DNA of 64,000 bases from Gemmatimonadales bacterium (GTDB taxonomy: Bacteria > Gemmatimonadota > Gemmatimonadetes > Gemmatimonadales > GWC2-71-9): NCBI GenBank assembly GCA_041602035.1, contig JBFIHA010000004.1, positions 71,888 through 135,887 on the forward strand. Reading direction: 5' to 3'. Each line of letters starts with the position of its first letter. Positions within the stretch are counted from its first letter, which is position 1. The notes under the pieces were generated by a model that saw nothing but the letters and a program-made list of their open reading frames with translations, ran no database searches and had not been told where the DNA came from. The translations under genes and the position numbers were made by a program. Of this stretch, positions 8,943 to 33,469 are shown in pieces.

Positions 8943-10838
<1,896 letters not shown>

Positions 10839-19654: not shown

Positions 19655-20794
19655 TCAGTAGCGCGCCATGGTCGGGTCCACGACGTCGGCCCACGCCGCC
19701 ACGCCACCTTTCAAACTCCGCACATGCTCGAACCCTGCGTCGCGCAACACGTCCACCGCGCGTAGGGAACGACGGCCGTGATGGCAGATGGTGACGATCT
19801 CGCTCGACGGATCGAGCTCGTTCACGCGCTGTGAAAGCGTGCCCATGGGGATGAGTCGAGATGCTGGGATGTGACAGATCGCCCACTCGAGAGGCTCCCG
19901 CACATCGACCAGCACGATCGCATCGTTGCCTCGAAGCTCGCGCGCCAACTCGGCAGCCGTGACCTCGTACTCGCCCGCCGGTTCCTCCGCACCGTATCCG
20001 CAGAACGCTTCGTAGTCGATCAGCTCCCGAATCGTGGGCGAGGTCCCGCAGATAGGGCATGTCGGATCACGACGGATCACAAGCTCGCGGAATTCGAGGT
20101 TGAGCGCATTGAACAGCAGGAGGCGTCCCTCGAGCGTGGTACCAGTGCCCAGAATCAGCTTGATGGCCTCGAGTGCCTGAATGCTCCCGATGATTCCCGG
20201 CAGGACGCCCAGCACGCCGGCCTCGTCGCAGGATGGGATCAGGCCCGGCGGTGGTGGCTCCCTGAACAGGCAGCGGTAGCACGGCCCCGACGAGCGGCCG
20301 AACACCGACGCCTGTCCATCGAAGCGGAAGATCGCGCCGTAGACGTATGGAATCCCCAAGAGCACGCAGGCATCGTTCACCAGATACCTGGTCGGGAAGT
20401 TATCGCTCCCATCCACTACAACGTCGAACGCGCGACAGACGTCGAGCGCGTTGCTGGAGGAGAGACGGTCCTCGAACGTCCGGAGCGTGACGTGCGGGTT
20501 GAGGTCGCGCAGTCTCGCCGCGGCGGACGACACCTTGCTCGTGCCCACCGCCGACGTGCCGTGAACCACCTGCCGCTGCAGGTTCGTCGCGTCGAGGAGG
20601 TCGGAATCGACGATCCCGAGCGTTCCGACCCCTGCCGCGGCCAGGTAGAGCAGTGCTGGTGACCCGAGGCCTCCCGCCCCAACCACCAGCACACTCGCGG
20701 ACCGTAGCCGTTGCTGCCCCTCCAGCCCAATTTCTGGGAGGAGGAGATGTCGAGAGTATCTGGTAACCTCGTGCGGGCTCAGTTCGTCGGACAT
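19655..20794 (-). CDS. ThiF/MoeB-family adenylyltransferase fused to a C-terminal rhodanese domain (MoeZ/MoeBR-type)
   Basis: From the internal ATG at 20794: MSDELSPHEVTRYSRHLLLPEIGLEGQQRL...VVGAGGLGSP. It has two CxxC pairs (CYRC, CPIC) and a rhodanese active-site loop, CHHGRRS. Confidence 0.85.
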   Translation of the reverse strand: MSDELSPHEVTRYSRHLLLPEIGLEGQQRLRSASVLVVGAGGLGSPALLYLAAAGVGTLGIVDSDLLDATNLQRQVVHGTSAVGTSKVSSAAARLRDLNPHVTLRTFEDRLSSSNALDVCRAFDVVVDGSDNFPTRYLVNDACVLLGIPYVYGAIFRFDGQASVFGRSSGPCYRCLFREPPPPGLIPSCDEAGVLGVLPGIIGSIQALEAIKLILGTGTTLEGRLLLFNALNLEFRELVIRRDPTCPICGTSPTIRELIDYEAFCGYGAEEPAGEYEVTAAELARELRGNDAIVLVDVREPLEWAICHIPASRLIPMGTLSQRVNELDPSSEIVTICHHGRRSLRAVDVLRDAGFEHVRSLKGGVAAWADVVDPTMARY

Positions 20795-20951
20795 CGCGCG
20801 ACAGCCAGCGCTCGGGTCCCGGTGCTCGGAACCTGCCGATAGACGCCTCGGTGAGGAAGTCCCTCTCCGATTGGCGTAATCCCGATAAGCTTGGTAGGAT
20901 TTCGCGGCGTAGGTAGACTTGTGCCCCACCCCACCCCGCTGTCACTCACCG

Positions 20952-21392
20952 CTACCGCGCCACGAGAGCTTCGACTTCAGACTCCTGACGCATGAGGTCG
21001 GCGAGAGACACGCTCGACAGCATCTCATCGATCCTGCGCTGCAGCTCACGCCATACGGGCCGGAGACTGCAATCCCCGTCGGGGCCACACCGCGCAAGAT
21101 TCACCCGGTGTGCATCGCAATACACTTCGAACGTGCGATTCTCGGCCGCTTCCATCACGTCCTTCACCGAGATGCTCTGGGGATCGTGGGCCAGGAAATA
21201 CCCGCCCTTCGCTCCCCGCACGCTCTTCACCAGCCCCGCCCTTCGGAGCTTCAGCAGGATCTGCTCCACATAGTCGGCAGGGAGGCCCTCTCGTTCTGCC
21301 AGGTCCCGCGCAGGCGTCGGGGTCTCTCCTCCCTCCTTGGCCAGGTGGAGGGACACAATCAAGCCGTACTCGGCCCAAGTTGTGACTCGCAT
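20952..21392 (-). CDS. Rrf2-family transcriptional regulator (IscR/NsrR-like, three Cys)
   Basis: MRVTTWAEYGLIVSLHLAK... with a winged HTH (LLKLRRAGLVKSVRGAKGGYFL) and a C-x9-C-x5-C cluster-ligand-like pattern. Confidence 0.85.
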   Translation of the reverse strand: MRVTTWAEYGLIVSLHLAKEGGETPTPARDLAEREGLPADYVEQILLKLRRAGLVKSVRGAKGGYFLAHDPQSISVKDVMEAAENRTFEVYCDAHRVNLARCGPDGDCSLRPVWRELQRRIDEMLSSVSLADLMRQESEVEALVAR

Positions 21393-21451
21393 GGTGCCTC
21401 CCGTACCCAAATATCCGACGCCCGGGCTCGGAAAGCAAGATTATTCGGCTT

Positions 21452-22882
21452 TCAGGATTCGCCCGTGTCCCCCGGCACACCGAGGTCCGTCATGGCCCGG
21501 AGATCCAACACGGCGTCCAGCTCCTGCGGCGGAAGCAGCCCCTTCTCTTCCACCAGTTCTCGCACCGTCAGGTTTCGGCGCACGGCCTCCTCCGCCAGTC
21601 TGGCCGCCTCGGCGTACCCGATGCGGGGAGCCAGCGCCGTCACGATTGCCGGACTCCGCTCCAGCCAGTAGGCGCATTGCTCCTCGTTGGCGACGATCCC
21701 CGCCACACACCGCTCGGCCAACAGCCGAGTGGCGTTTGCCAATATCTCGACCGAAAAGAGGAGGTTGTGGGCGATGACGGGCATCATGACGTTCAGCTCG
21801 AGCTGGCCCGCCTCGGCCGCGGCCGCCACCGTGACGTCGTTCCCGATGACTTGGAAGCAGACCATGTTGGTCATCTCTGCGATCACCGGGTTCACTTTTC
21901 CCGGCATGATGCTCGATCCCGGCTGCACGGCCGGCAGACGAATCTCGGCGAGACCTGTTCGCGGCCCGGACGATAGGAGACGTACGTCATTGGCGATTTT
22001 GCCGAGATCGACCGCATAACTCCGGAGCAAGCCACTCACCGCCGCGAAGTCCCCCATGGACTGCATCAGCTGCACGCGGTCTCCTCCCTCCCGCACCGGA
22101 AGTCCCGTGAGTTGCGCAAGCTCCTCCACCATGCGTGCCGGGTATGCCGGCTCGACATTGAGCCCCGTACCCACGGCGGACCCGCCAATGTTCAGCTCCT
22201 CGAGCCACGTCGATCCCTGATTCAGCCGATCGACATTGCGTTCGACCGTCATGCCGAAGGCGGCGAACTCCTGGCCCAAGCGGATCGGCGTGGCATCCTG
22301 GAGGTGCGTTCGTCCCGACTTCAACACATCGTCAAAGGCCCTTCCCCTGTCGAGAAGTGCGCCTGCCAAGAGGCCCATGCACTCCGTCAGCCGTGGCAGA
22401 CTCGCCAGCATCGCCAATCGGATCGCCGTCGGGATGGTGTCGTTGGTGCTCTGCGCCATGTTGACGTGATCGTTGGGATGGATCGGACGGTACTCTCCGC
22501 GTCGGCCTCCCAGCAGCTCGTTGGCGCGGTTGGCGAGCACCTCGTTCACGTTCATGTTGTGACTCGTTCCAGCCCCCGCCTGATATGGATCGATCACGAA
22601 CTGATCGCGATGGTCACCGGCCAGCACCTCGTCGGCGGCGCGGACGATCGCGTCTGCCAAGTCCGGCCCGAGCCGCCCGGTGCCGTGGTGAACCCGTGCC
22701 GCCGATCGCTTGATCCACACCATCGCGTCGACGAACCGGTGCATCGGGCGAAGTCCTGATACCGGGAAGTTCTGGACGGCACGTGCCGTCTGGATGCCGT
22801 ACAGGGCCTTCGCGGGCACCGGGAACTCGCCCAGGGAATCGCGCTCGACGCGCGTCCCGGAAGCTTTGGGTTCGTGGGCCAT
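21452..22882 (-). CDS. aspA: Aspartate ammonia-lyase (class II fumarase/aspartase family)
   Basis: 476 aa. Has the GSSIMPGKVNPV signature. QAGAGTSHNMNVNEVLANRA...GEYRPIHPNDHVNMAQSTND is closer to the aspartase pattern than to FumC. Confidence 0.75.
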   Translation of the reverse strand: MAHEPKASGTRVERDSLGEFPVPAKALYGIQTARAVQNFPVSGLRPMHRFVDAMVWIKRSAARVHHGTGRLGPDLADAIVRAADEVLAGDHRDQFVIDPYQAGAGTSHNMNVNEVLANRANELLGGRRGEYRPIHPNDHVNMAQSTNDTIPTAIRLAMLASLPRLTECMGLLAGALLDRGRAFDDVLKSGRTHLQDATPIRLGQEFAAFGMTVERNVDRLNQGSTWLEELNIGGSAVGTGLNVEPAYPARMVEELAQLTGLPVREGGDRVQLMQSMGDFAAVSGLLRSYAVDLGKIANDVRLLSSGPRTGLAEIRLPAVQPGSSIMPGKVNPVIAEMTNMVCFQVIGNDVTVAAAAEAGQLELNVMMPVIAHNLLFSVEILANATRLLAERCVAGIVANEEQCAYWLERSPAIVTALAPRIGYAEAARLAEEAVRRNLTVRELVEEKGLLPPQELDAVLDLRAMTDLGVPGDTGES

Positions 22883-22884
22883 TT

Positions 22885-23445
22885 CTACCTCGTCACCTCG
22901 ACCCGCAGGGCATCGTTGAACCGGTTGAAGTAGCTGAAGAGGCCGGCGACCAACGTCACCTCGACGATCTCCTCTTCGTTCCAGTGTCGGGACAGCTCGC
23001 GATAATCCCGGTCAGTCACCGCGTGACCGCTGGCCGCGACGAGTTCACCGAACCGGAGCGCCGCCTTCCATCCCTCCCCCATCCCCTCGAGCGACGCCGG
23101 CACCGTGCTTTCGTCCTCCGGCGTTTCCACACGAACGGCCGAGATCCATGACTCCTGTGCGCCCAGCCGCCTTGCCAAGGCGGTGTGAGAGGCCAGTCAG
23201 TAGCGGCATCGGTTGATGGATGACACACGTACCGCCACCAACTCTTTGAGCAACGGGGGCACGTCGCCCTCGTTCATCACCGTCCGGAAATGTGCGATCA
23301 TGGTCTGCAGGTGCCGCGGTCGCGCGGCCACCGTCCGAAACATGTTCGGGATATTCCCCCGCTCGCGCAGGTAGGTCTCGAAGATCGCGCGCACGTCGCC
23401 GTCTACGTCATCGGGCCCACGGGGTCGAATACGGGGTTCGGTCAT
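22885..23445 (-). CDS. AhpD-like / carboxymuconolactone decarboxylase-family protein with in-frame TGA (23197-23199) at the second Cys of CxxC: candidate selenoprotein
   Basis: Track ORFs 23197..23553 and 22885..23178 are in the same frame. Reading through gives ...LKELVAVRVSSINRCRY-[TGA]-LASHTALARRLGAQ..., which fits the family motif C-x-x-C-x-x-x-H with TGA at the second Cys. The ATG at 23443-23445 gives MTEPRIRPRG. Confidence 0.7.
23167..23183 (-). promoter_or_regulatory. SECIS-like hairpin downstream of the AhpD-like UGA
   Basis: In the mRNA: CCGCCU-[UGGCA]-AGGCGG. 6-bp stem, with the apical loop at +23..+27 from the U of UGA. A possible lower stem pairs UGACU with AGUCA. Confidence 0.45.
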
Positions 23446-23459
23446 CGTGATGCGGCGTC

Positions 23460-23639
23460 CTAGTCGGAGCAGTCGCCCAGCGGGTAGGGGAAGCCGCAGT
23501 TGCGGCAGGGGTCCTTGCAGCCCCAGGGGCGCGCTGCGACCGGGAATCCGCACCGCAGACAGCGGAACAGCTCGTCGCCCAGGGGCGCCGGTGCCGCCGT
23601 ACCGCCCCCGACCCCGGATGTCGGCCGGGCCGTCGTCAC
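23460..23639 (-). CDS. Possible small (59 aa) Cys-rich zinc-ribbon-like protein
   Basis: GTG at 23637-23639, 7 nt after the MBL stop. The stop lies 14 nt before the AhpD-like ATG. Sequence ...LGDELFRCLRCGFPVAARPWGCKDPCRNCGFPYPLGDCSD. GC3 is very high. It fills an otherwise unexplained 180-nt gap in a tightly packed operon. Confidence 0.35.
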   Translation of the reverse strand: MTTARPTSGVGGGTAAPAPLGDELFRCLRCGFPVAARPWGCKDPCRNCGFPYPLGDCSD

Positions 23640-23646
23640 TCGCGGA

Positions 23647-24294
23647 TCAGGCAAGGGGAAACGCACCAGTGAGGAACGGATTCGACGCGCGTTCGCGACC
23701 CACTGTGGTTTCGGGACCGTGGCCGCAATACACGATGGTCTCGTCCGGGAGCGCCAGCAATTCCCGCCGGATGCTCTCCAGCAACGTCGTACCGTCACCA
23801 CCAGGAAGATCCACCCGGCCCACGGAGCCGGCGAACAGGGCGTCCCCGACAAAGGCAATCCCGTGACCCACGAACGCCACCGAGCCCGGGCTGTGACCGG
23901 GAACGTGCCGGACGGTGAACCGGTACGGTCCGACCGCGAGGGTGTCGCCCGCGTGAAGTTCGTGCTGCGGGGGCGGCGGTGGATCAACACGGATGCCGAA
24001 CCAGGCGCCTTGGCTCGCCGCGGCATCGTACAGCTGCCGATCCGCAGGATGGAGATACACTGGAACCGCTCGGCACTCGACCACGGCTGCCACCCCTTGG
24101 ATGTGATCGAGATGTGCGTGGGTCAACCAGACGGCACGGAGATCGAGGTGCTCTGATTCGAGTCGCTCGAGAAACAACTCGGCCTCTTCTCCAGGGTCGA
24201 CGATCACCGCATCCTGGCTCGCATCGTCCGCGATGATAAAGCCGTTCTCCTGAAACGCCCCCGTCGTGAGGCAGACAACCCTAGGATGCGCCAA
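23647..24294 (-). CDS. MBL-fold metallo-hydrolase (glyoxalase II / YcbL-like)
   Basis: Contains THAHLDHIQG, the HxHxDH motif, and VPGHSPGS. The start is uncertain: a TTG at 24292-24294 is proposed, while the ORF is open to 24384. Confidence 0.8.
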   Translation of the reverse strand: MAHPRVVCLTTGAFQENGFIIADDASQDAVIVDPGEEAELFLERLESEHLDLRAVWLTHAHLDHIQGVAAVVECRAVPVYLHPADRQLYDAAASQGAWFGIRVDPPPPPQHELHAGDTLAVGPYRFTVRHVPGHSPGSVAFVGHGIAFVGDALFAGSVGRVDLPGGDGTTLLESIRRELLALPDETIVYCGHGPETTVGRERASNPFLTGAFPLA

Positions 24295-25297
24295 TGCCGG
24301 CCGGCTCCCCGCGCTCCCGTTCGCGATCCTGGCGATCGACCAAGTACTTCTCCACGGCCATCGCCGCTGTCGTCGCGTCGCCAACCGCCGTCGTGATCTG
24401 ACGAACGAGCTGCACGCGGAGATCGCCGGCGGCGAACAGACCGGGAATCGACGTCATCATGTGACTGTCTGTGATGATGTACCCGCCAGCATCGTGGTCG
24501 AAGTGGCCTTTGATAAGTCCAGAATTCGGCGTGAACCCGATGAAGATGAACACTCCGCCAACGGGTAAGGTCGACTGCTCGCCCGTCTGCGTGTCCTTCA
24601 GGCGGAGTTGCGTCACACCTTTCGGGTCGCCCTCGACTTCCTCGACCACCCTGTTCCAGATCACCGCGATCTTTGGATTGGCGAGTGCGCGCTTCTGGAT
24701 GATCGGCGAGGCCCGAAGCTCGTCTCGCCGGTGAATGATGTACACCTTGGAGGCATAGCGCGTGAGGTAGTCGGCCTCCTCCACGGCGGCATCTCCACCT
24801 CCGATCACCGCCAGCACCTCGCCCTTGAAGAAGGCTCCGTCGCACACGGCACAGTACGAGACACCGCGTCCGGCAAACTCCTTCTCACCCGGGACGTCCA
24901 GTTTCCGCGGAGTGCCACCCGCCGTGATGATCACCGCCGGCGCCCGGTACTCCTTATCGAGCTGCGTGGTGACATCGAAGGTGCCGTCCGCTCGCTTGGC
25001 GATCGACTCCACCGTATCCATCACGAACTCGGCCCCGAACTTTTTGGCGTGATCAGCCATGCGCTGCGCCAGTTCGGGCCCCTTGATGCTCTCGAACCCG
25101 ATGTAGTCTTCGATCAGATCCGTGTTGAGGAGCTCACCACCCGGCATGCCGCGCTCGATCACGAGTGTTTTGAGCATCCCACGGCCCGCGTACATCGCTG
25201 CACAAAGCCCAGCGGGCCCCGCACCGACGATGATCACATCGTAGCCCTGTTCCGCGTCTCGGTCTTTCCGTTTCACGACTCCCTCGACTCCCATCAT
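24281..25297 (-). CDS. trxB: Thioredoxin-disulfide reductase
   Basis: From the internal ATG at 25297: MMGVEG...YDVIIVGAGPAGLCAAMYAGRG. Has the redox-active CAVCDG motif and a second Rossmann motif, AVIGGGDAAVEEA. Confidence 0.93.
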   Translation of the reverse strand: MMGVEGVVKRKDRDAEQGYDVIIVGAGPAGLCAAMYAGRGMLKTLVIERGMPGGELLNTDLIEDYIGFESIKGPELAQRMADHAKKFGAEFVMDTVESIAKRADGTFDVTTQLDKEYRAPAVIITAGGTPRKLDVPGEKEFAGRGVSYCAVCDGAFFKGEVLAVIGGGDAAVEEADYLTRYASKVYIIHRRDELRASPIIQKRALANPKIAVIWNRVVEEVEGDPKGVTQLRLKDTQTGEQSTLPVGGVFIFIGFTPNSGLIKGHFDHDAGGYIITDSHMMTSIPGLFAAGDLRVQLVRQITTAVGDATTAAMAVEKYLVDRQDRERERGEPAGIGAS

Positions 25298-25478
25298 AGT
25301 TCCGAGCTGTGTAGCATCGGTTCTCCAGCCTGCAGGCAGCATGCCGGTGCGTCGATCCCCGGCGATGCGACGGGCACGCCCGCTCCGGTGCCACCTCCTC
25401 AACAGCGGACGATCGGCTGACGTTCCCGTCGACCGTCGTAACCTATCACCGGTGGCCGCTGGAACGTGTCCGCGTTGC

Positions 25479-25919
25479 TCACTGCAGCGCGGCGAGCACC
25501 TCCTTGGCTCCGGGAGCGCCCCGGGCGGCAAATACCACGGTCCCGTCCCGATCGATCAGCACCACCGAGCGTTGGGTCTTCTGCCCGTCGGCCTTGAGGG
25601 CCCCGAACGTCCCCGTGGTCTCGCGATCCGGATCGCTCAGCAACGGGAACGGGAGCTTGAGCTTGGATGCGTAACGACCGTGGGCCTCGACGCCCGCCGG
25701 GTTGACGCCAAATGGCTGCACGTCCTGCTTCCGAAATCGCTCGATCTCATCGCGCACGGCGGAGAGTTGGCGGTTTCACCCCGGCGTGTTGTTCCCAGGA
25801 TAAAACACCAAGAACACGCGTGAGCCCTGCAACACGTCCGACAGCCGATACCGCTTCCCATCCGACGCGTCTAATGCGAAGTCCGGGGCGGCCTCCCCGA
25901 CGGTAATGAGGTCGGTCAT
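25479..25919 (-). CDS. Bcp-type peroxiredoxin with in-frame TGA (25776-25778) at the peroxidatic Cys: candidate selenocysteine peroxiredoxin
   Basis: Track ORFs 25776..25976 and 25479..25757 share a frame. Reading through gives MTDLITVGEAAPDFAL...VFLVFYPGNNTPG-[TGA]-NRQLSAVRDEIERFRKQDVQPFGVNP...PFPLLSDPD...VVLIDRDG, against the family consensus FYPxxxTPGCTxE. The ATG at 25917-25919 overlaps the PHP gene stop (ATGA). Confidence 0.75.
25745..25765 (-). promoter_or_regulatory. SECIS-like hairpin downstream of the peroxiredoxin UGA
   Basis: In the mRNA, +14..+34 from the U of UGA: UCUC-CGC-[CGUGC]-GCG-(AU bulge)-GAGA. The apical loop has GU at +22/+23. Confidence 0.45.
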
Positions 25920-26761
25920 CCTACCTCCTCGACTGAGATGCGTTGCTGGTGAAGGTACTCGATGTCGTTCAGCCACTGTGCTGGAACGGTGATGCTTCCA
26001 AGTGGCGCTCGATTCGGCTCGTCCGCGTCATCGCCGTGCCAATCAGTTCCACCCGTCCGCACCATACCCAGTGCGCCCGTGAGGTGCTCGATTTCTGTTC
26101 CGCGGCGGTCGTCGTGCAACGGATGCCGTACCTCCGCTCCGTCGACTCCGCGGGCGCGCAGCGACGCAAGACCGCGACGCGTCGCCCGGGAGCCTAGGTG
26201 CGCCGCCGACGTGACCCCCCCGAGCGAGCGGACCAGCCCCGTGACTTCCCGAACGCTGGGGAGGTCTTTGGGGACGAACGCAGGACGCCGAGAGCCGAGG
26301 AAGCGGTGGAACGCTTCGGGGATGTCGGCGACGTGACCGCCGCGAACCAACACCCTGGCGACGTGGGGTCGCCCGACCGCGCCGGCTCCGGCGGCGGACT
26401 CGACGTCCTCGAAGGAGACCGGAACTCCCAGCTCGCGGAGTCGGTCCACCATCTGCTGGGCCCGCACCACGCGCTTGCCCCGCTTGTCCGCGAGGAAGGC
26501 TTCGAGTCGAGGCTCCCCAAGTGGGAGGAAGTACGCTAGGAGATGCATCTCCCCCCACGGAGCCGCCACCGAGAACTCACATCCGGCGATGACCCGCACC
26601 CCCAGACGGCCCCCTTCGGCCTCCGCGTCGGCCAGGCCGGCCAGCGTGTCGTGGTCTGTCAGGGCGATGACCGAAAGCCCGTGTGCCGCCGCACGTCGCG
26701 CCACCTCCGTCGGCGGACATGCACCGTCGGAGGCGCTCGAATGCATGTGCAAGTCGATCAC
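25916..26761 (-). CDS. PHP-domain metal-dependent phosphoesterase (TrpH/YciV-like)
   Basis: MIDLHMHSSASDGACPP...IALTDHDTLAG; 281 aa. Confidence 0.85.
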   Translation of the reverse strand: MIDLHMHSSASDGACPPTEVARRAAAHGLSVIALTDHDTLAGLADAEAEGGRLGVRVIAGCEFSVAAPWGEMHLLAYFLPLGEPRLEAFLADKRGKRVVRAQQMVDRLRELGVPVSFEDVESAAGAGAVGRPHVARVLVRGGHVADIPEAFHRFLGSRRPAFVPKDLPSVREVTGLVRSLGGVTSAAHLGSRATRRGLASLRARGVDGAEVRHPLHDDRRGTEIEHLTGALGMVRTGGTDWHGDDADEPNRAPLGSITVPAQWLNDIEYLHQQRISVEEVG

Positions 26762-27051
26762 GTGTGCGGCACGGAATCTCTCGCGCCGTACGCGATCTCC
26801 GGGCTCATCGCCCCAGGCTGTGATTGCCGAAAGAGCTCGAGCAGTTGCAGACCGGTCAACTCCTGCAGTGCCACATCCCAGCGTCGCGTTCCGATTGGCG
26901 AGTAACGGGTGACCCGGCGCACGCGGTCCGGGCCCGACCCCTTCTCAAACACTAACCCGAACTCGTCACGGTCGTACGCCGTCACACGGCCCGAGGGATA
27001 GACCTGCCACATCTCGCCGTCGACCTCGATCGTTCGTCGCGCCATGCTCAC
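26758..27051 (-). CDS. Hypothetical protein (97 aa)
   Basis: Overlaps both neighbouring genes by 4 nt, which suggests translational coupling. No recognisable motif. Confidence 0.5.
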   Translation of the reverse strand: MSMARRTIEVDGEMWQVYPSGRVTAYDRDEFGLVFEKGSGPDRVRRVTRYSPIGTRRWDVALQELTGLQLLELFRQSQPGAMSPEIAYGARDSVPHT

Positions 27052-28379
27052 ACCGCTCCCTCAGAGAACGCCTCGAGATCCTGCTTCACGTCAGCCATGA
27101 ACCGGTCCGCGTCGGCGCCATCGACAATGCGATGGTCGTACGAGATGGACAGGAGCCCCATGGTCCGAATCGCCATCACATCCTGACCGTCTTCGAGGGT
27201 GAGCACCTTGGGGCGCTTCTCGATCGAGCCGATACCAAGGATGGCCACCTGCGGCTGGCTGATGATGGGTGCTCCCGCGTAGGAGCCGAACACCCCCGGA
27301 TTCGTGATCGTGAAGGTCCCCTGCTGCACCTCATCAGGCGACAGGCGTTTGACGCGGGCCCGTTCGGCGAGATCCGCCACCTTCTTGGCGATTCCAAGCA
27401 AGGACAACTCGTCTGCATGCTTCAACACGGGGACGATGAGGCCCCAATCGAGCGCCACGGCGATACCGATGTTGATGGACTTCCGATAGATGATGGCGTC
27501 GCCGCTGACCGACGCGTTGAGCACGGGATGCTTCCGCAGATTGTCGGCGATGACCTTGATGATGAACGTCAGGTAGGTCGGGTTCGCCCCGCGCTCCTGG
27601 TAGTCTTTCTTGATTCGAGCCCGGAGCCGGGCGACCTCGGTGTAGTCGATCTCATAGTAGCTCGTAACGTGCGCGGATACCCGCCGCGACAGCACCATGT
27701 GATCTGCCGTGAGCTTCCGGATCCGGCTCATCGGCACCACTTGGTCCCCCGGCCAGGGCTCGACCGAGGGGTGGGTAACGGTACCGGCGGACGGTGCCGC
27801 CGCGGGCGCCGCGGGCGCTGCCGCCGGGGCGCGATGCTCCCCGCGCTCGATGAACTCGAGGATGTCCTTCTTCGTCACCCGGCCCCCATGGCCCGACCCC
27901 TCCACTCGTCCGATATCGACACCGTGCTCCGCGGCGATCTTCCGGACCAGGGGAGTGGACCGCCGACGCAGCCGCTCCTCGGCATTTTCGTCGCCAGCAG
28001 GCGCTTTGGGGGGGGTACTCGGTGGCGCGGGGGCGGCCGCCGGCGCCGGCGTGGGCGTCTCGGCCGGCTTCGGGGCGGGCGTGGCAGCAGCCTCCGCCGG
28101 CGGCGGTGCGGGCGGCGCCGAGCCGGCAACCCCCGCGCCATCAGTATCAATCACCGCGATCACGGTCTGGACGGCGACCGTCTCGCCCTCACCGACCTTG
28201 ATCTCCGCCAGCACGCCGGCCGTGGGTGCAGGGATCTCGGCATCTACTTTGTCCGTCGAAATCTCCAGGATGGCCTCGTCTCGCTTCACCGAGTCCCCCA
28301 CCTGCTTGAGCCACCGCGACACGGTGCCTTCGGCGATGGACTCGCCCATCTGAGGCATGATCACATCGACACGCGCCAT
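27048..28379 (-). CDS. 2-oxoacid dehydrogenase E2 (dihydrolipoamide acyltransferase)
   Basis: Lipoyl domain (EISTDKVDAEIPAP), Ala/Pro linker, E3/E1-binding domain (PLVRKIAAEHGVD) and a catalytic domain with DHRIVDGA. Confidence 0.92.
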   Translation of the reverse strand: MARVDVIMPQMGESIAEGTVSRWLKQVGDSVKRDEAILEISTDKVDAEIPAPTAGVLAEIKVGEGETVAVQTVIAVIDTDGAGVAGSAPPAPPPAEAAATPAPKPAETPTPAPAAAPAPPSTPPKAPAGDENAEERLRRRSTPLVRKIAAEHGVDIGRVEGSGHGGRVTKKDILEFIERGEHRAPAAAPAAPAAAPSAGTVTHPSVEPWPGDQVVPMSRIRKLTADHMVLSRRVSAHVTSYYEIDYTEVARLRARIKKDYQERGANPTYLTFIIKVIADNLRKHPVLNASVSGDAIIYRKSINIGIAVALDWGLIVPVLKHADELSLLGIAKKVADLAERARVKRLSPDEVQQGTFTITNPGVFGSYAGAPIISQPQVAILGIGSIEKRPKVLTLEDGQDVMAIRTMGLLSISYDHRIVDGADADRFMADVKQDLEAFSEGAV

Positions 28380-28903: not shown

Positions 28904-29884
28904 TCAGTAGCTGAGCAGCCTCCGCGCCGTTTCCACGATCGCCTCGGTCTGGGGAAGCACGAAGTCTTCGAGCGGACCTGAGAATGGCAGCGGGGCATCG
29001 TGGGCCGTGACTCGCAGCACCGGTGCATCCAGCCATTCGAAGCCCTGCTCGTTCACCCGGGCGGTGATCTCACCGGCAAGGCCACCGGTGCGGGTGTCCT
29101 CATGAACGATCAAGAGTCGGCTGGTCTGCCGTACCGAAGCCATGATGGCCGCGTCGTCCATGGGCAACAGCGTGCGCAAGTCGATCACGTCCACCGAGAC
29201 CTGGTCCTCCCGTTCGAGGATCTCGGCAGCCTCCAGCGCCTTCCACACCATGGCCGACCAGGTCACCACCGTCAGGTCCCGCCCCTCACGAACCGTTCGG
29301 GCCATGCCGATCGGGGTGAGGACCTCCGGATCGTCCGGAACGTCCTCCTTGATGCGTCGATAGAGAAATTTGTGCTCGAAGAAGATGACCGGATCCTCGT
29401 CACGGATCGATGCCTTCAGCAGACCTTTGGCGTCCGCCACGGACGCGGGGCTCACGAGCTTGAGGCCCGGCGTGTGAAAGAACGCGGCCTCGGGCATCTG
29501 TGAATGGAATGGACCACCCCGCACGTAGCCGCCGGATGGGCCGCGAATCACGATCGGTGTCGAGAGTCCGGCGCGGTATCGCGCGGTCGCGACATAATTT
29601 GTGATGATGTCGTACGCACAGGAGATGAAGTCGATGAACTGCATCTCGGCTACCGGCCGCAGGCCCATGTGGGCAGCTCCGGCCGCGGCCCCGACGATCG
29701 CCGCCTCGCTGAGCGGCGTATCGATCACTCGCTGTGCGCCGAACCGCTCCTGGAATCCCTCAGTCAACTTGAAGGCGCCGCCGTACTGACCGATGTCCTC
29801 TCCCAGGAGGAACACTCGCTCGTCGCGCTCCATCTCCTCCCACAAGCCTTGTCGCAGGGCTTCGAGGTAGGTCAGCGAGGGCAC
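28904..29884 (-). CDS. 2-oxoacid dehydrogenase E1 component beta subunit
   Basis: 326 aa. YLEALRQGLWEEMERDERVFLLGEDIGQYGGAFKLTEGF is typical of the transketolase-like E1-beta family. Confidence 0.92.
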   Translation of the reverse strand: MPSLTYLEALRQGLWEEMERDERVFLLGEDIGQYGGAFKLTEGFQERFGAQRVIDTPLSEAAIVGAAAGAAHMGLRPVAEMQFIDFISCAYDIITNYVATARYRAGLSTPIVIRGPSGGYVRGGPFHSQMPEAAFFHTPGLKLVSPASVADAKGLLKASIRDEDPVIFFEHKFLYRRIKEDVPDDPEVLTPIGMARTVREGRDLTVVTWSAMVWKALEAAEILEREDQVSVDVIDLRTLLPMDDAAIMASVRQTSRLLIVHEDTRTGGLAGEITARVNEQGFEWLDAPVLRVTAHDAPLPFSGPLEDFVLPQTEAIVETARRLLSY

Positions 29885-29935: not shown

Positions 29936-30151
29936 TCACGAGACGATCGTCGCGCTGTAGCCGGCGGTCTGGACAGCCGTCACCAGATCCTGCAGACCGG
30001 TCCGTCTCGGGTCGAAATCGACCTCGGCGGTCTCCGCCCCCAGATCCACCTGCGTCGCGAACACGCCCGAGACGTCGCTGAGGGCCCTCTCGACCTTCTG
30101 ACGGCAATGGTTGCAGGTCATACCGGTGATGTGGAGCTGTGCCGTTGCCAT
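29936..30151 (-). CDS. copZ: Heavy-metal-associated (HMA) copper chaperone
   Basis: 71 aa. ITGMTCNHCRQKVERAL contains the GMTCxxC motif. Confidence 0.88.
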   Translation of the reverse strand: MATAQLHITGMTCNHCRQKVERALSDVSGVFATQVDLGAETAEVDFDPRRTGLQDLVTAVQTAGYSATIVS

Positions 30152-30204
30152 GGGATTCCGTCCGTCCGAGTGAACCCGTGAGAAGACGTGGGGACCCGCG
30201 ACCG

Positions 30205-30495
30205 TCAGTACGCGCCCCGCGCCAGGTGGCCTGGCTCCACACGGGCATGGAGCACGGTCAGAAACCGCTTTCCCACCTTGTCCGCCTCGCTTTCGCCCAC
30301 CTGATCGGTGTGCAGCGTCACGAGCGTGTAGTGTCCTCCCTCGGCTTCGACCTTGACCGTAATGGTGCCGATGGTCCCGCTGAACGTCCGGAGCCGGTTC
30401 CGGGACTCACCCGGCGCCAGGCGCTCGCCGAAGTAGCGATCGGCCTCCGCAATTACTTCATCGGGGCTCATCGTCGTACGATGGAAGTAGCGCAT
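30205..30495 (-). CDS. Hypothetical protein (96 aa) between copA and copZ
   Basis: ORF with high GC3, packed between copA (3-nt gap) and copZ. No recognised motif. Confidence 0.45.
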   Translation of the reverse strand: MRYFHRTTMSPDEVIAEADRYFGERLAPGESRNRLRTFSGTIGTITVKVEAEGGHYTLVTLHTDQVGESEADKVGKRFLTVLHARVEPGHLARGAY

Positions 30496-30498
30496 TGA

Positions 30499-33051
30499 TC
30501 ATGTCATCTGGGTTGGTGTGAACGCCCGGAGTCGCAGGCTGTTGCCCACGACGCTCAGGCTGGATGCTGCCATCGCCGCGCTCGCGACGATCGGACTGAG
30601 CAGGATCCCCGTGAACGGATACAACACCCCGGCGGCGAGCGGGATCCCCAACACATTGTACACGAAGGCAAAGAACAGATTACCGCGAATGGTCCGCATG
30701 GTGCGTCTCGACAGCTCGATGGCTGCGACGACGCCGTTCACGTCCCCGCGGATCAGCGTGATATCGGAGGCCTCCACTGCCACGTCGGTGCCCGTCCCCA
30801 AGGCGAACCCGATGTCGGCCTGGGCGAGTGCCGGGGCGTCATTGATCCCGTCGCCGACCATCGCGACGACTCGTCCGCCCTCCTGCAAACGCTTGATTTC
30901 GTCCGTCTTGTCCCGAGGGTCCACTTCAGCGATCACGCGGTCGATGCCGACCTCTTTCCCGACGAGGCGCGCCGCCACCTTGCTGTCACCACTCAGGAGC
31001 ACGACTTCGAGGCCCATGTCCTTGAGCCGGCTGACCGCCCCCTTCGCCCCGGGCTTCAGCTCGTCGGCGATGATGATCGCGCCCTGTACCGTGTCGTTGA
31101 CCACCACGATCGCGGGCGACCGTCCCGCCAAGATGTGGCGCTCCACCTCCTGTTCCAGGGAGCCCAGTGGCAGGCTCCGCTCACTGGCGTGACGCACGCT
31201 GATAACCTCGACGAGGAACTTGCCGACGATCCCGCGCGCGCCCCGCCCTTCCATCGCCACGAACCGCTCCACCGTCGGCGTCTCGAGGCCCTTCGCGCCG
31301 GCAGCGTGAACGATGGCGGAGGCCAACGGGTGCTCGGATCGCGCCTCGACGGCGGCGGCCAGGCGTAGCAACTCGTCCGGAGCCACGATGGACCCGTCTT
31401 TGCGCCTCGCGCCAAGCACCTGCGTCACCACCGGCTCGCCCACGGTGATGGTACCGGTCTTGTCGAACACCACGGTCTCGATGCGCCGTACGGTCTCGAG
31501 CGCCTCACCACCGCGGATCAGAATCCCGTGCTCCGCCCCCTTGCCGGTTCCCACCATGATGGCCGTCGGGGTCGCCAGACCAAGGGCGCAGGGGCAGGCA
31601 ATGACCAGGACCGTCACGAGCGCGACCGTGCTGTACACGGCCTTGGGGTCCGGCCCCAGAATCCACCAGACGACGAAGGCCGCGATGGCGATGGCAATCA
31701 CGATGGGCACGAAGATGCCGGCCACAGTGTCTGCCAGCCGCTGGGCCGGTGCCTTGGTGCCCTGCGCCTCCTCCACGAGCCGAACGATCTGGGCCAGCGC
31801 GGTATCTCGACCGACCGCGGTAGTCTCGTACATGAACGACCCCGTGGTATTGACCGTACCCCCCACGACCGTGTCGCCCGCCTTCTTCTCGACCGGCAAG
31901 GGCTCACCCGTCAGCATCGCCTCGCTGACACTCGATTCGCCCGACCGCACGATGCCGTCCACCGGCAGCGTCTCTCCGGGACGAACGATCACAAGGTCAC
32001 CGACCTGCACTTCTTCGATCGGGATCTCCACATCCTGGCCGGCACGCTGCACCCGCGCCGTCTTCGGACGGAGCCCGAGCAGGCGACGGATGGCCGCGGA
32101 CGTCTGCCCTTTGGCGCGCGCTTCCAGCAGCCGCCCGAGCAGGATCAGGGCGATGATGGCATTGACCGCTTCGAAGTAGACGTCCGCGGGGAGTCCCGCC
32201 CGCTCGAACACCCACGGGAGGAGCGTGGCCACCGACGAATACAGGAAGGCGGCCCCAGTGCCAACGGCGATCAACGTATTCATGTCGGCGCTACGATGCT
32301 TGGCCCCACTCCACGCACCACGGAAGAACTGCCACCCACTCCAGAACAGCACGGGTAGTGTGAGCAGCATGAGGCCGAGCTTGAGGCCGACGGGGTTCAC
32401 CTCGGCGAAGGCATACAGCGAGGGGAGCAGATTCCCGAGCGTCTGGTTCAGCGGTTGCATCAGCCGCATGACGAGATCGTGCTCCTTGGCCCCCATGACC
32501 CCCATGAGCGGCATCGATCCCACCATGGTGAGCAGGGCCGCCACCGCGGCCACGGCAAACTTGAGGGCGAGCTGACGGACCTCGGCCTGTCGTTTGAGCC
32601 GTTCTCGCTCGACCGGGTCTTCTGCGGCCACGGGCTCAGCTACCGTGAAGCCCGCCTCCGACACCGCCCGTTCGAGCTCCTGGGCGGTCACGAGGCCGGG
32701 GACGTACTCCACCCGCACGTGCTCGGTGGCCTGATTCGCCACCGCGGACAGCACTCCGGGGAGCGCCGAGAGACCGCTCTCGAGACGGCTTACGCCCGTG
32801 GCATAGTGCAACCCCTCGACGCCAAAGCTCACCGTAGCCTTGGCGCAGTCATAGCCCGCCTCACGAACCGCCCGCACGAGATCCGCCACCTTCACCACCG
32901 AGTCGTCGATGGTCACCGTGGCCTTCCCCGTGGCGTAGTTCACCGCGGCATCGGTCACGCCGTTGGCTCGGGCCAGACGCTTCTGCACGGTCGTGGCGCA
33001 CGCCCCGCAGGTCATGCCCTCCACCGGAAGGGTGACTCGCGCCCTAGGCAT
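30499..33051 (-). CDS. copA: Copper-translocating P1B-type ATPase
   Basis: 850 aa. The N-terminal HMA domain has GMTCGAC. The second HMA-like domain lacks CxxC (GLHYATG). Also has CPC ([11 protein letters not shown]), DKTGT, and GDGINDAP. Confidence 0.95.
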
Positions 33052-33469
33052 GCTTGTCGTGTCCCTTCCCGAGATTTGCCCGGGCCCCCTCGCGTCCGAT
33101 CTGTGCCACCACGCGTCCCCTCAGCACCGACTTGCCGCAGCGGAACGGGTAGTCCCCAGCCGCCGTCGGAGTGAACTCGACCGCCGTCGTCTCGAAGGCC
33201 GCCAAGGCGTGATCGATTCCGAGTGTCTCGAAGACGACGCGCTCAGAGCACTCCGCCGTCTCGTCACGATGGAAGAGGAGGCGTACCGGGCGGCCCGCCT
33301 CCACGAAGATGGTGTCCGGATCGTATCCGTCCCTGACCAGCACCCGGATCTCCTGCACGTCGCCGGATCGAGCGGGGCGCTCCGGCCCGGGCCGGGGCCC
33401 GAGGAAGTACCACAACTCACCGGCGATAAGGGCGACGCCGAGGACGGCGACGATGACGTCCCCTATCAC
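33044..33469 (-). CDS. Membrane-anchored cupredoxin-like domain protein
   Basis: 141 aa. N-terminal TM helix. The C-terminal part (...[15 protein letters not shown]...) resembles the cupredoxin-like proteins often found upstream of copA. GTG start overlaps the inositol-phosphate synthase stop (GTGA). Confidence 0.6.

Follow-up and report, generated by a model that had tools for sequence, protein, structure and literature searches.

A thioredoxin reductase gene neighbourhood of Gemmatimonadota with two candidate selenoproteins, a peroxiredoxin and an AhpD-like protein

Peroxiredoxins (Prx; PF00578) with selenocysteine (Sec) in a TxxU motif are among the experimentally studied prokaryotic selenoproteins (PMC13188914). 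AhpD-like selenoproteins with a CxxU motif (TIGR01926/COG2128, pfam02627) have been predicted from the Sargasso Sea and Global Ocean Sampling (GOS) metagenomes (PMC1088965, PMC2398784), and adjoining genes for Prx-type and AhpD-type selenoproteins in GOS reads led to the guess of a shared redox process (PMC2398784). Here we describe a locus with genes of both kinds in 64,000 nucleotides of DNA from a Gemmatimonadales bacterium (contig JBFIHA010000004.1, positions 71,888 to 135,887; the whole of this stretch is called the window). A Prx gene and an AhpD-like gene, each with an in-frame UGA, lie on either side of the gene for a thioredoxin reductase, TrxB. The best explanation of our results, which we consider probable, is that both UGAs are Sec codons, that the Prx would be resolved by an external partner with NADPH electrons arriving through TrxB, and that the genes belong to a conserved neighbourhood that is compact here.

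The window Prx resembles known Prx selenoproteins, including PrxU, in its AhpC/TSA fold, in a predicted Sec that replaces the peroxidatic Cys of a T-x-x-U motif (here T-P-G-U) and in a candidate selenocysteine insertion sequence (SECIS) within the coding region after the UGA. It differs from PrxU (NF040737; 47.7 bits against a cutoff of 270) in being BCP/PrxQ-like and in lacking a resolving Cys, and from known Prx selenoproteins in belonging to a Gemmatimonadota-wide clade with a near-invariant 21-nt element past the UGA. The AhpD-like protein shares with its described counterparts the CMD/AhpD core, the replacement of the second Cys of CxxC by Sec, with xxSH after it, and Cys homologues that are far more numerous; however, it falls just below the TIGR01926 cutoff and is not a member of the (seleno)protein equivalogs NF041238 or NF053654. 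Unlike the adjoining GOS pair, the two window genes are 2.0 kb apart with trxB, a metallo-beta-lactamase (MBL)-fold hydrolase gene and a Cys-rich open reading frame (ORF) between them, and the window Prx is of the TxxU type whereas the GOS Prx is of the UxxC Prx-like 1 type. In the BCP-thioredoxin (Trx)-TrxB relay of Escherichia coli and the AhpC-AhpD-DlaT-Lpd relay of Mycobacterium, a Prx is recycled by a CxxC protein that is itself reduced by a flavoprotein disulfide reductase. The window row, in contrast, has no Trx or Lpd gene, both redox partners carry a predicted Sec, and it is gene position that suggests the links between them.

In-frame UGA codons and the RNA elements that follow them

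The two genes and the elements within them are as follows.

25479..25919, minus strand: Prx, BCP/PrxQ-like, 146 aa, predicted Sec in place of the peroxidatic Cys (PF00578, 114.8 bits when U is read as C)
25776..25778, minus strand: in-frame UGA of Prx, putative Sec codon 48 (TGA across related loci; TGT/TGC in syntenic Cys forms)
25745..25766, minus strand: candidate SECIS of Prx, nt 13-34 from the U of UGA (short interrupted hairpin, apical loop CGUGC)
22885..23445, minus strand: AhpD/CMD-like protein, 186 aa, predicted Sec as second residue of CxxC (PF02627 58.3, TIGR00778 54.9, TIGR01926 76.3 bits)
23197..23199, minus strand: in-frame UGA of the AhpD-like gene, putative Sec codon 83 (TGA in orthologues; TGC in L011-L014)
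23167..23183, minus strand: putative SECIS hairpin of the AhpD-like gene, nt 17-33 from the U of UGA (7-bp stem CCGCCUU/AAGGCGG, apical loop GGC)

Read through its UGA, the Prx gene encodes FYPGNNTPG-U-NRQLSAVRDE, in which the PxxxTxxC motif of the active site appears as P41-G-N-N-T45-P-G-U48; the domain is also present, at a PF00578 score well above the Pfam threshold of 26. There is no Cys besides the Sec site, which makes the protein a 1-Sec type, and Cys-form orthologues have the peroxidatic Cys only. The protein appears BCP-like by best match only, with scores below the curated cutoffs of the BCP/PrxQ equivalogs NF006960 (71.5 against 140) and NF053650 (67.9 against 260) as well as that of PrxU. 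In a database search with U replaced by C, full-length homologues span the UGA site with a Cys (TPGC) in the aligned column. The nearest relatives (68-99% identity) are all C-terminal fragments of 91-94 aa, as expected when a gene caller stops at a TGA.

For comparison we used the DNA around eight Prx relatives together with 80 best-matching species-representative genome loci. Of 93 loci, 89 have TGA as codon 48 of Prx; they represent 85 distinct genes, the most divergent at 54% amino-acid identity. The other four, which are syntenic Cys-form loci (L011-L014), have TGT or TGC; TAA or TAG was never seen. The sequence 3' of the UGA has a dN/dS of 0.115 against L003, the nearest relative compared (dS ~0.6-0.7), and the upstream value is similar. 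The 21 nt after the UGA are nearly invariant, synonymous sites included: codons 52-56 and 58 each appear as a single codon across the 85 genes, and synonymous codon entropy over nt 13-33 is 0.14 bits, compared with 1.50 bits at conserved 4- and 6-fold sites elsewhere. This stretch folds as an interrupted hairpin with loop CGUGC and a minimum free energy (MFE) of -6.5 kcal/mol. A two-sided (compensatory) change in locus L040 fits a bulged register of this hairpin, although this is one event only.

The depth of metagenomic contigs over this part of the gene was uneven, reaching 40-62x at 25748-25881 in two sediment runs as against ~5x on either side; the conserved active-site and SECIS stretch likely attracts contigs of many Gemmatimonadota.

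The AhpD-like gene reads through as INRCRY-U-LASH, with the motif C80-R-Y-U83-L-A-S-H87. Its membership of the AhpD/CMD family is supported by PF02627 (58.3 bits against a threshold of 23) and TIGR00778 (54.9 against 27.8), while with U replaced by C it scores 76.3 bits against the TIGR01926 cutoff of 81.8 and, for AhpD proper (TIGR00777), only 20.4 against 191.95. All full-length homologues aligned have a Cys in the UGA column (C83). At codon 83, 25 of 29 loci have TGA, which amounts to 22 distinct genes; L011-L014 have TGC there, TAA and TAG do not occur, and in every locus that carries both genes the Sec or Cys state of the AhpD-like protein agrees with that of Prx. Downstream of the UGA, dN/dS against L003 is 0.199 (dS ~0.6-0.7) with a similar value upstream; for both genes, dN/dS 3' of the UGA lies at ~0.1-0.25 at unsaturated distances.

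Covariation argues for the hairpin that follows this second UGA, CCGCCUU-GGC-AAGGCGG. Among 21 distinct TGA genes all 147 of 147 cells are paired, and three of the seven pairs show compensatory changes (C-G to U-A twice, U-A to C-G once). None of 500 shuffles reached the covariation score and every slid control collapsed. The hairpin has a folding energy of -10.6 kcal/mol (z = -2.8) and is absent in both Cys-form lineages. Its apical GG falls at nt 24-25, counted from the U of the UGA, which would put it near G23/U24, the canonical position in the fdhF SECIS of E. coli. The compensatory stem changes recode the peptide TALARR as TVLARQ (codon 89 from Ala to Val, codon 93 from Arg to Gln), and hence the RNA structure constrains the protein sequence.

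It might be argued that the two TGAs arose by nonsense mutation or by errors of sequencing or assembly, or that they are true stops that split each gene into two expressed pieces, as gene callers divide Prx into 47 and 92 aa and the AhpD-like protein into 82 and 97 aa, and a GTG or TTG lies 18 nt past each TGA. However, TGA is fixed at the exact catalytic codon in 85 distinct Prx genes and 22 distinct AhpD-like genes without a single TAA or TAG, purifying selection acts on both sides of each codon, and neither half alone would make a Prx or CMD fold. The sequence recurs in independent metagenome assemblies of other runs. RNA elements associated with the TGA forms follow each codon, although the Cys-form locus L011 keeps nearly the same nucleotides in its Prx gene. 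This explanation thus appears very remote, and a pseudogene or a sequencing error was rejected for both TGAs on codon conservation and the independent assemblies. Genome-wide reassignment of UGA was rejected on stop-codon usage, since TGA ends 24 of the 38 window genes and is the commonest ordinary stop.

Several observations weigh against the Sec assignments. No selA, selB, selC or selD gene was found in the 64-kb window or in 1.09 Mb of related DNA. Scans of the window for tRNA-Sec and Rfam families returned only tRNA-Leu and tRNA-Ala, ARAGORN found no tRNA-Sec across all loci fetched, a Pfam scan of 20 further large window ORFs gave no sel genes, and the SelD active-site motif did not occur within the 1.09 Mb of fetched DNA. 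The Prx element is too invariant for its pairing to be checked, with two registers indistinguishable, and L011 keeps nearly the same nucleotides after its Prx TGT. Two broader scans were uninformative: folding of the 60 nt past each UGA yielded z-scores near 0 owing to the GC-rich context, and a scan for further split ORFs based on GC at third codon positions did not discriminate in a 65% GC genome.

The L011 Prx gene (10001-10459) has 36 nt after its TGT that closely resemble window positions 25743-25775, yet the AhpD-like hairpin is gone from this locus. This pattern suggests either a recent switch from Sec to Cys or an element that existed beforehand.

The original prediction, made from the letters of the window, had named both genes as Sec candidates. 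Our comparison bears this out: each UGA stands at the column of a catalytic Cys, the TGA is conserved, RNA elements follow it and purifying selection is evident on both sides. On this sequence evidence both calls are very probably right, with Sec as the presumed inserted residue. The Prx and the AhpD-like protein are new members of known selenoprotein families.

The gene row and its conservation among relatives

The remaining features of the row, and the genes that follow it, are listed below.

25916..26761, minus strand: PHP-domain phosphoesterase, YciV/TrpH- or pAp-phosphatase-like (PF02811 53 bits; NF041577 157 bits, below its cutoff)
25298..25478, no strand: Prx-TrxB spacer of 181 nt, the sole sizeable gap of the row
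24281..25297, minus strand: TrxB, low-Mr thioredoxin-disulfide reductase, CAVC redox motif (TIGR01292 379.9 bits against a cutoff of 343.45)
23647..24294, minus strand: MBL-fold hydrolase, GloB-like (PF00753 97.5 bits; TIGR03413 104.9 against an equivalog cutoff of 200.8)
23460..23639, minus strand: small Cys-rich protein, 59 aa (no Pfam or NCBIfam match; N-terminus and start codon uncertain)
21452..22882, minus strand: aspartate ammonia-lyase, aspA (NF008909 631 bits)
20952..21410, minus strand: Rrf2-family regulator, start uncertain (PF02082 117 bits; after aspA in relatives too)
19655..20929, minus strand: ThiF-rhodanese adenylyltransferase/sulfurtransferase, MoeZ/MoeB-like (PF00899 and PF00581; NF006444 468 bits)

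ORFs and domains agree with the gene order given in the original prediction (PHP, Prx, TrxB, MBL hydrolase, 59-aa Cys-rich ORF, AhpD-like, aspA), and the Rrf2-type regulator and rhodanese-fused MoeZ-like enzyme that it placed after aspA are recovered by their domains. The junctions are likewise as described there, with short gaps and with ATGA and TTG overlaps. From PHP to the AhpD-like gene the row lies on one strand, with junctions between a 14-nt overlap and a 14-nt gap in size, apart from the 181-nt spacer. The PHP stop and the Prx start overlap as ATGA, the TrxB and MBL genes overlap by 14 nt with TTG as the MBL start, and the gaps that follow are of 7 nt (MBL to the Cys-rich ORF), 14 nt (Cys-rich ORF to AhpD-like) and 2 nt (AhpD-like to aspA).

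Comparison of Sec and Cys forms in relatives, which had been proposed as a check, showed the trxB neighbourhood to be conserved in both versions. PHP immediately precedes Prx in 92 of 93 loci, the MBL gene directly follows TrxB in all 79 of 79, and Sec and Cys lineages as distant as ~55% identity share the order Prx ... TrxB-MBL ... AhpD-like. The compact row of the window is one variant of this neighbourhood, which is conserved across Gemmatimonadota.

Whether the row acts as one unit is a separate matter, for which there is counter-evidence in the same comparison. The spacing between Prx and TrxB has a median of 1.9 kb and is below 400 nt in only 11 of 82 loci, while in 57 of the 82 there are 1-2.7 kb of unrelated genes between the two. 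The AhpD-like gene lies between MBL and aspA in just 28 of 59 loci. No plausible thioredoxin gene was found in a motif scan of the window for thioredoxins and glutaredoxins. Two AhpD-like homologues outside the clade (46-48% identical) have neither TrxB nor Prx nearby, and one of these adjoins a Cu/Zn superoxide dismutase. Furthermore, the genes remain closely packed and co-directional beyond the row, upstream through a 97-aa ORF, a 2-oxoacid dehydrogenase E2 gene and its E1-beta gene (to ~29884) and downstream to MoeZ, so that the row is part of a longer co-directional string and not a bounded unit.

It may be instead that the Prx and the AhpD-like protein are true selenoproteins but functionally independent of TrxB and of each other, within a conserved housekeeping string whose compactness here reflects mere loss of intervening genes. 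The unrelated genes between Prx and TrxB, the 31 of 59 loci without the AhpD-like gene, the packing that extends to E1-beta/E2 on one side and to aspA, Rrf2 and MoeZ on the other, the lack of such synteny around the two homologues outside the clade and the lack of a Trx gene in the window all favour independence, which we regard as a tentative but serious possibility. However, the order Prx ... TrxB-MBL ... AhpD-like has been held across Sec and Cys lineages, all three of Prx, TrxB and the AhpD-like protein are thiol/selenol redox proteins, and a 1-Sec Prx needs an external reductant, for which TrxB is the nearest reductase.

A shared function of the row genes is plausible, and the positions of the genes would give a single module centred on TrxB somewhat less than an even chance. 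The original prediction had proposed one co-expressed Sec-based redox module. This proposal is partly supported, by the constancy of the PHP-Prx and TrxB-MBL pairs; what counts against it is that Prx and TrxB are usually ~1.9 kb apart, that the AhpD-like gene is in place in 28 of 59 loci and that there is no Trx gene. Scans for sigma-70 promoters and terminators gave nothing usable in the row, the 181-nt spacer included; a single weak match to a terminator falls within the MBL gene (23874-23860), with a match count below the shuffle expectation. From one metatranscriptome, only two short contigs map to the row, at 25158-25394 and at 25523-25752, and neither fully bridges a junction.

The inserts between Prx and TrxB in relatives encode short-chain dehydrogenases/reductases, DUF309 proteins and a protein with an AF_1314_C domain. 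A DUF309 gene is directly upstream of trxB in 41 related loci (e.g., L005 10293-10694, L009 10343-10729 and L008 10408-10794), and no remnant of it was found in the 181-nt gap of the window. In some genomes with a TGA-form Prx, only 180-430 nt separate the MBL gene or Cys-rich ORF from aspA (12429-12852 in L007/L008; also L020, L023, L025 and L035), and the AhpD-like gene is thus cleanly absent there.

The small Cys-rich protein has a conserved core of CxRCG...GCKNPCxNCGxxYPLGDCSD at its C-terminus with six invariant Cys and follows MBL in ~70 Gemmatimonadota loci of both Sec and Cys lineages (e.g., L003 12156-12308); a zinc ribbon is one possibility, and a redox partner of TrxB or MBL another. 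Upstream of the row, the 97-aa ORF (26758-27051, minus strand) lies between E2 and PHP, overlaps both by 4 nt and has no family match, and ORFs of 88-96 aa fill its slot in the relatives inspected. The lipoyl-bearing E2 gene (27048-28379, minus strand) and the E1-beta gene (28904-29884, minus strand) are just upstream of PHP-Prx, a position kept in all relatives inspected. Beyond them is a copper-handling cluster (29936-33469, minus strand), also kept in relatives, with an HMA copper chaperone-like ORF, a 96-aa ORF, a CopA-type P-type ATPase (850 aa) and a cupredoxin-like protein.

Electron supply to a one-Sec peroxiredoxin

We propose that, in both mRNAs, a hairpin ~13-33 nt past the UGA would recruit SelB with Sec-tRNA(Sec), as in the canonical bacterial mechanism, and that Sec would be inserted at the peroxidatic position of Prx and at the second CxxC position of the AhpD-like protein. 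The Prx selenolate would then reduce H2O2 or organic peroxides and become a selenenic acid. As there is no resolving Cys within the Prx, this selenenic acid would have to be resolved by an outside thiol or selenol partner. The likeliest resolver may be a thioredoxin whose gene lies elsewhere and which the adjacent TrxB would reduce, with NADPH electrons entering through TrxB; where the genome has one, the AhpD-like CxxU protein may be an alternative or additional resolver. Both this electron path and the co-transcription of the genes are suggested by gene position at every link.

A more specific form of this proposal is that the AhpD-like CxxU protein is the dedicated resolver of the Cys-free Prx, through a transient Se-Se or Se-S bond, and is recycled by TrxB without thioredoxin. 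We consider this unlikely. It is also conceivable that electrons take a route like that of the mycobacterial AhpC-AhpD-DlaT-Lpd system, in which the lipoyl group of E2 would reduce the AhpD-like CxxU protein and this in turn the Prx, with TrxB uninvolved. AhpD-family proteins of Mycobacterium use the same CxxC motif for lipoyl-linked reduction, and in the window a lipoyl-bearing E2 gene is found three genes upstream (28379-27048), together with E1-beta, at a position kept in all relatives inspected. However, the AhpD-like protein reaches only 20 bits against the cutoff of 192 for AhpD proper (TIGR00777) and is missing from half of the genomes with a Sec-form Prx, the Prx is of BCP type and not of AhpC type, and no Lpd gene was identified in the row. 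A lipoyl-linked supply therefore seems quite improbable, and we prefer an external partner fed by TrxB.

Selenocysteine in Gemmatimonadota

All 80 species-representative loci come from metagenome-assembled genomes (MAGs) of Gemmatimonadota, the best of which are 86-87% identical in protein, and this places the host within that phylum. The window's own DNA is present in marine and sediment metagenomes. Source data for hadal sediment of the Challenger Deep list selA (K01042) and selD (K01008) each in 0.864 of Gemmatimonadota MAGs (PMC8938466). These source data were the sole relevant item in the paper texts that we searched, where no discussion of Sec or selenoproteins in Gemmatimonadota was found, and the accessible part of the supplement to the ISME J 2016 selenium survey holds no Gemmatimonadetes entry. 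The original prediction had raised the possibility that the locus would extend Sec use to a new lineage. Given a TGA-form Prx in all 80 best-matching species-representative Gemmatimonadota genomes and the record of selA and selD in 86% of hadal MAGs, no new Sec lineage is added.

The selenoprotein families and the mechanism of Sec insertion are likewise known, and this knowledge is unchanged by our results. What the locus provides is a well-supported example of Sec in Gemmatimonadota, a phylum widespread in soil and sediment but little cultured. Both genes are called as fragments in the public records that we inspected, one of them named only 'hypothetical protein'. As the TGA-form Prx occurs in at least 80 species-level genomes, it could serve to mark Sec decoding in the phylum and to correct genome annotations. 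The SECIS of the AhpD-like gene is a clear case of an RNA structure that constrains the sequence of the protein it encodes. Finally, the Cys-free 1-Sec Prx poses a testable question, namely, which partner resolves its selenenic acid; if the AhpD-like protein were a dedicated resolver, the pair would form a selenium-to-selenium peroxide relay specific to Gemmatimonadota.

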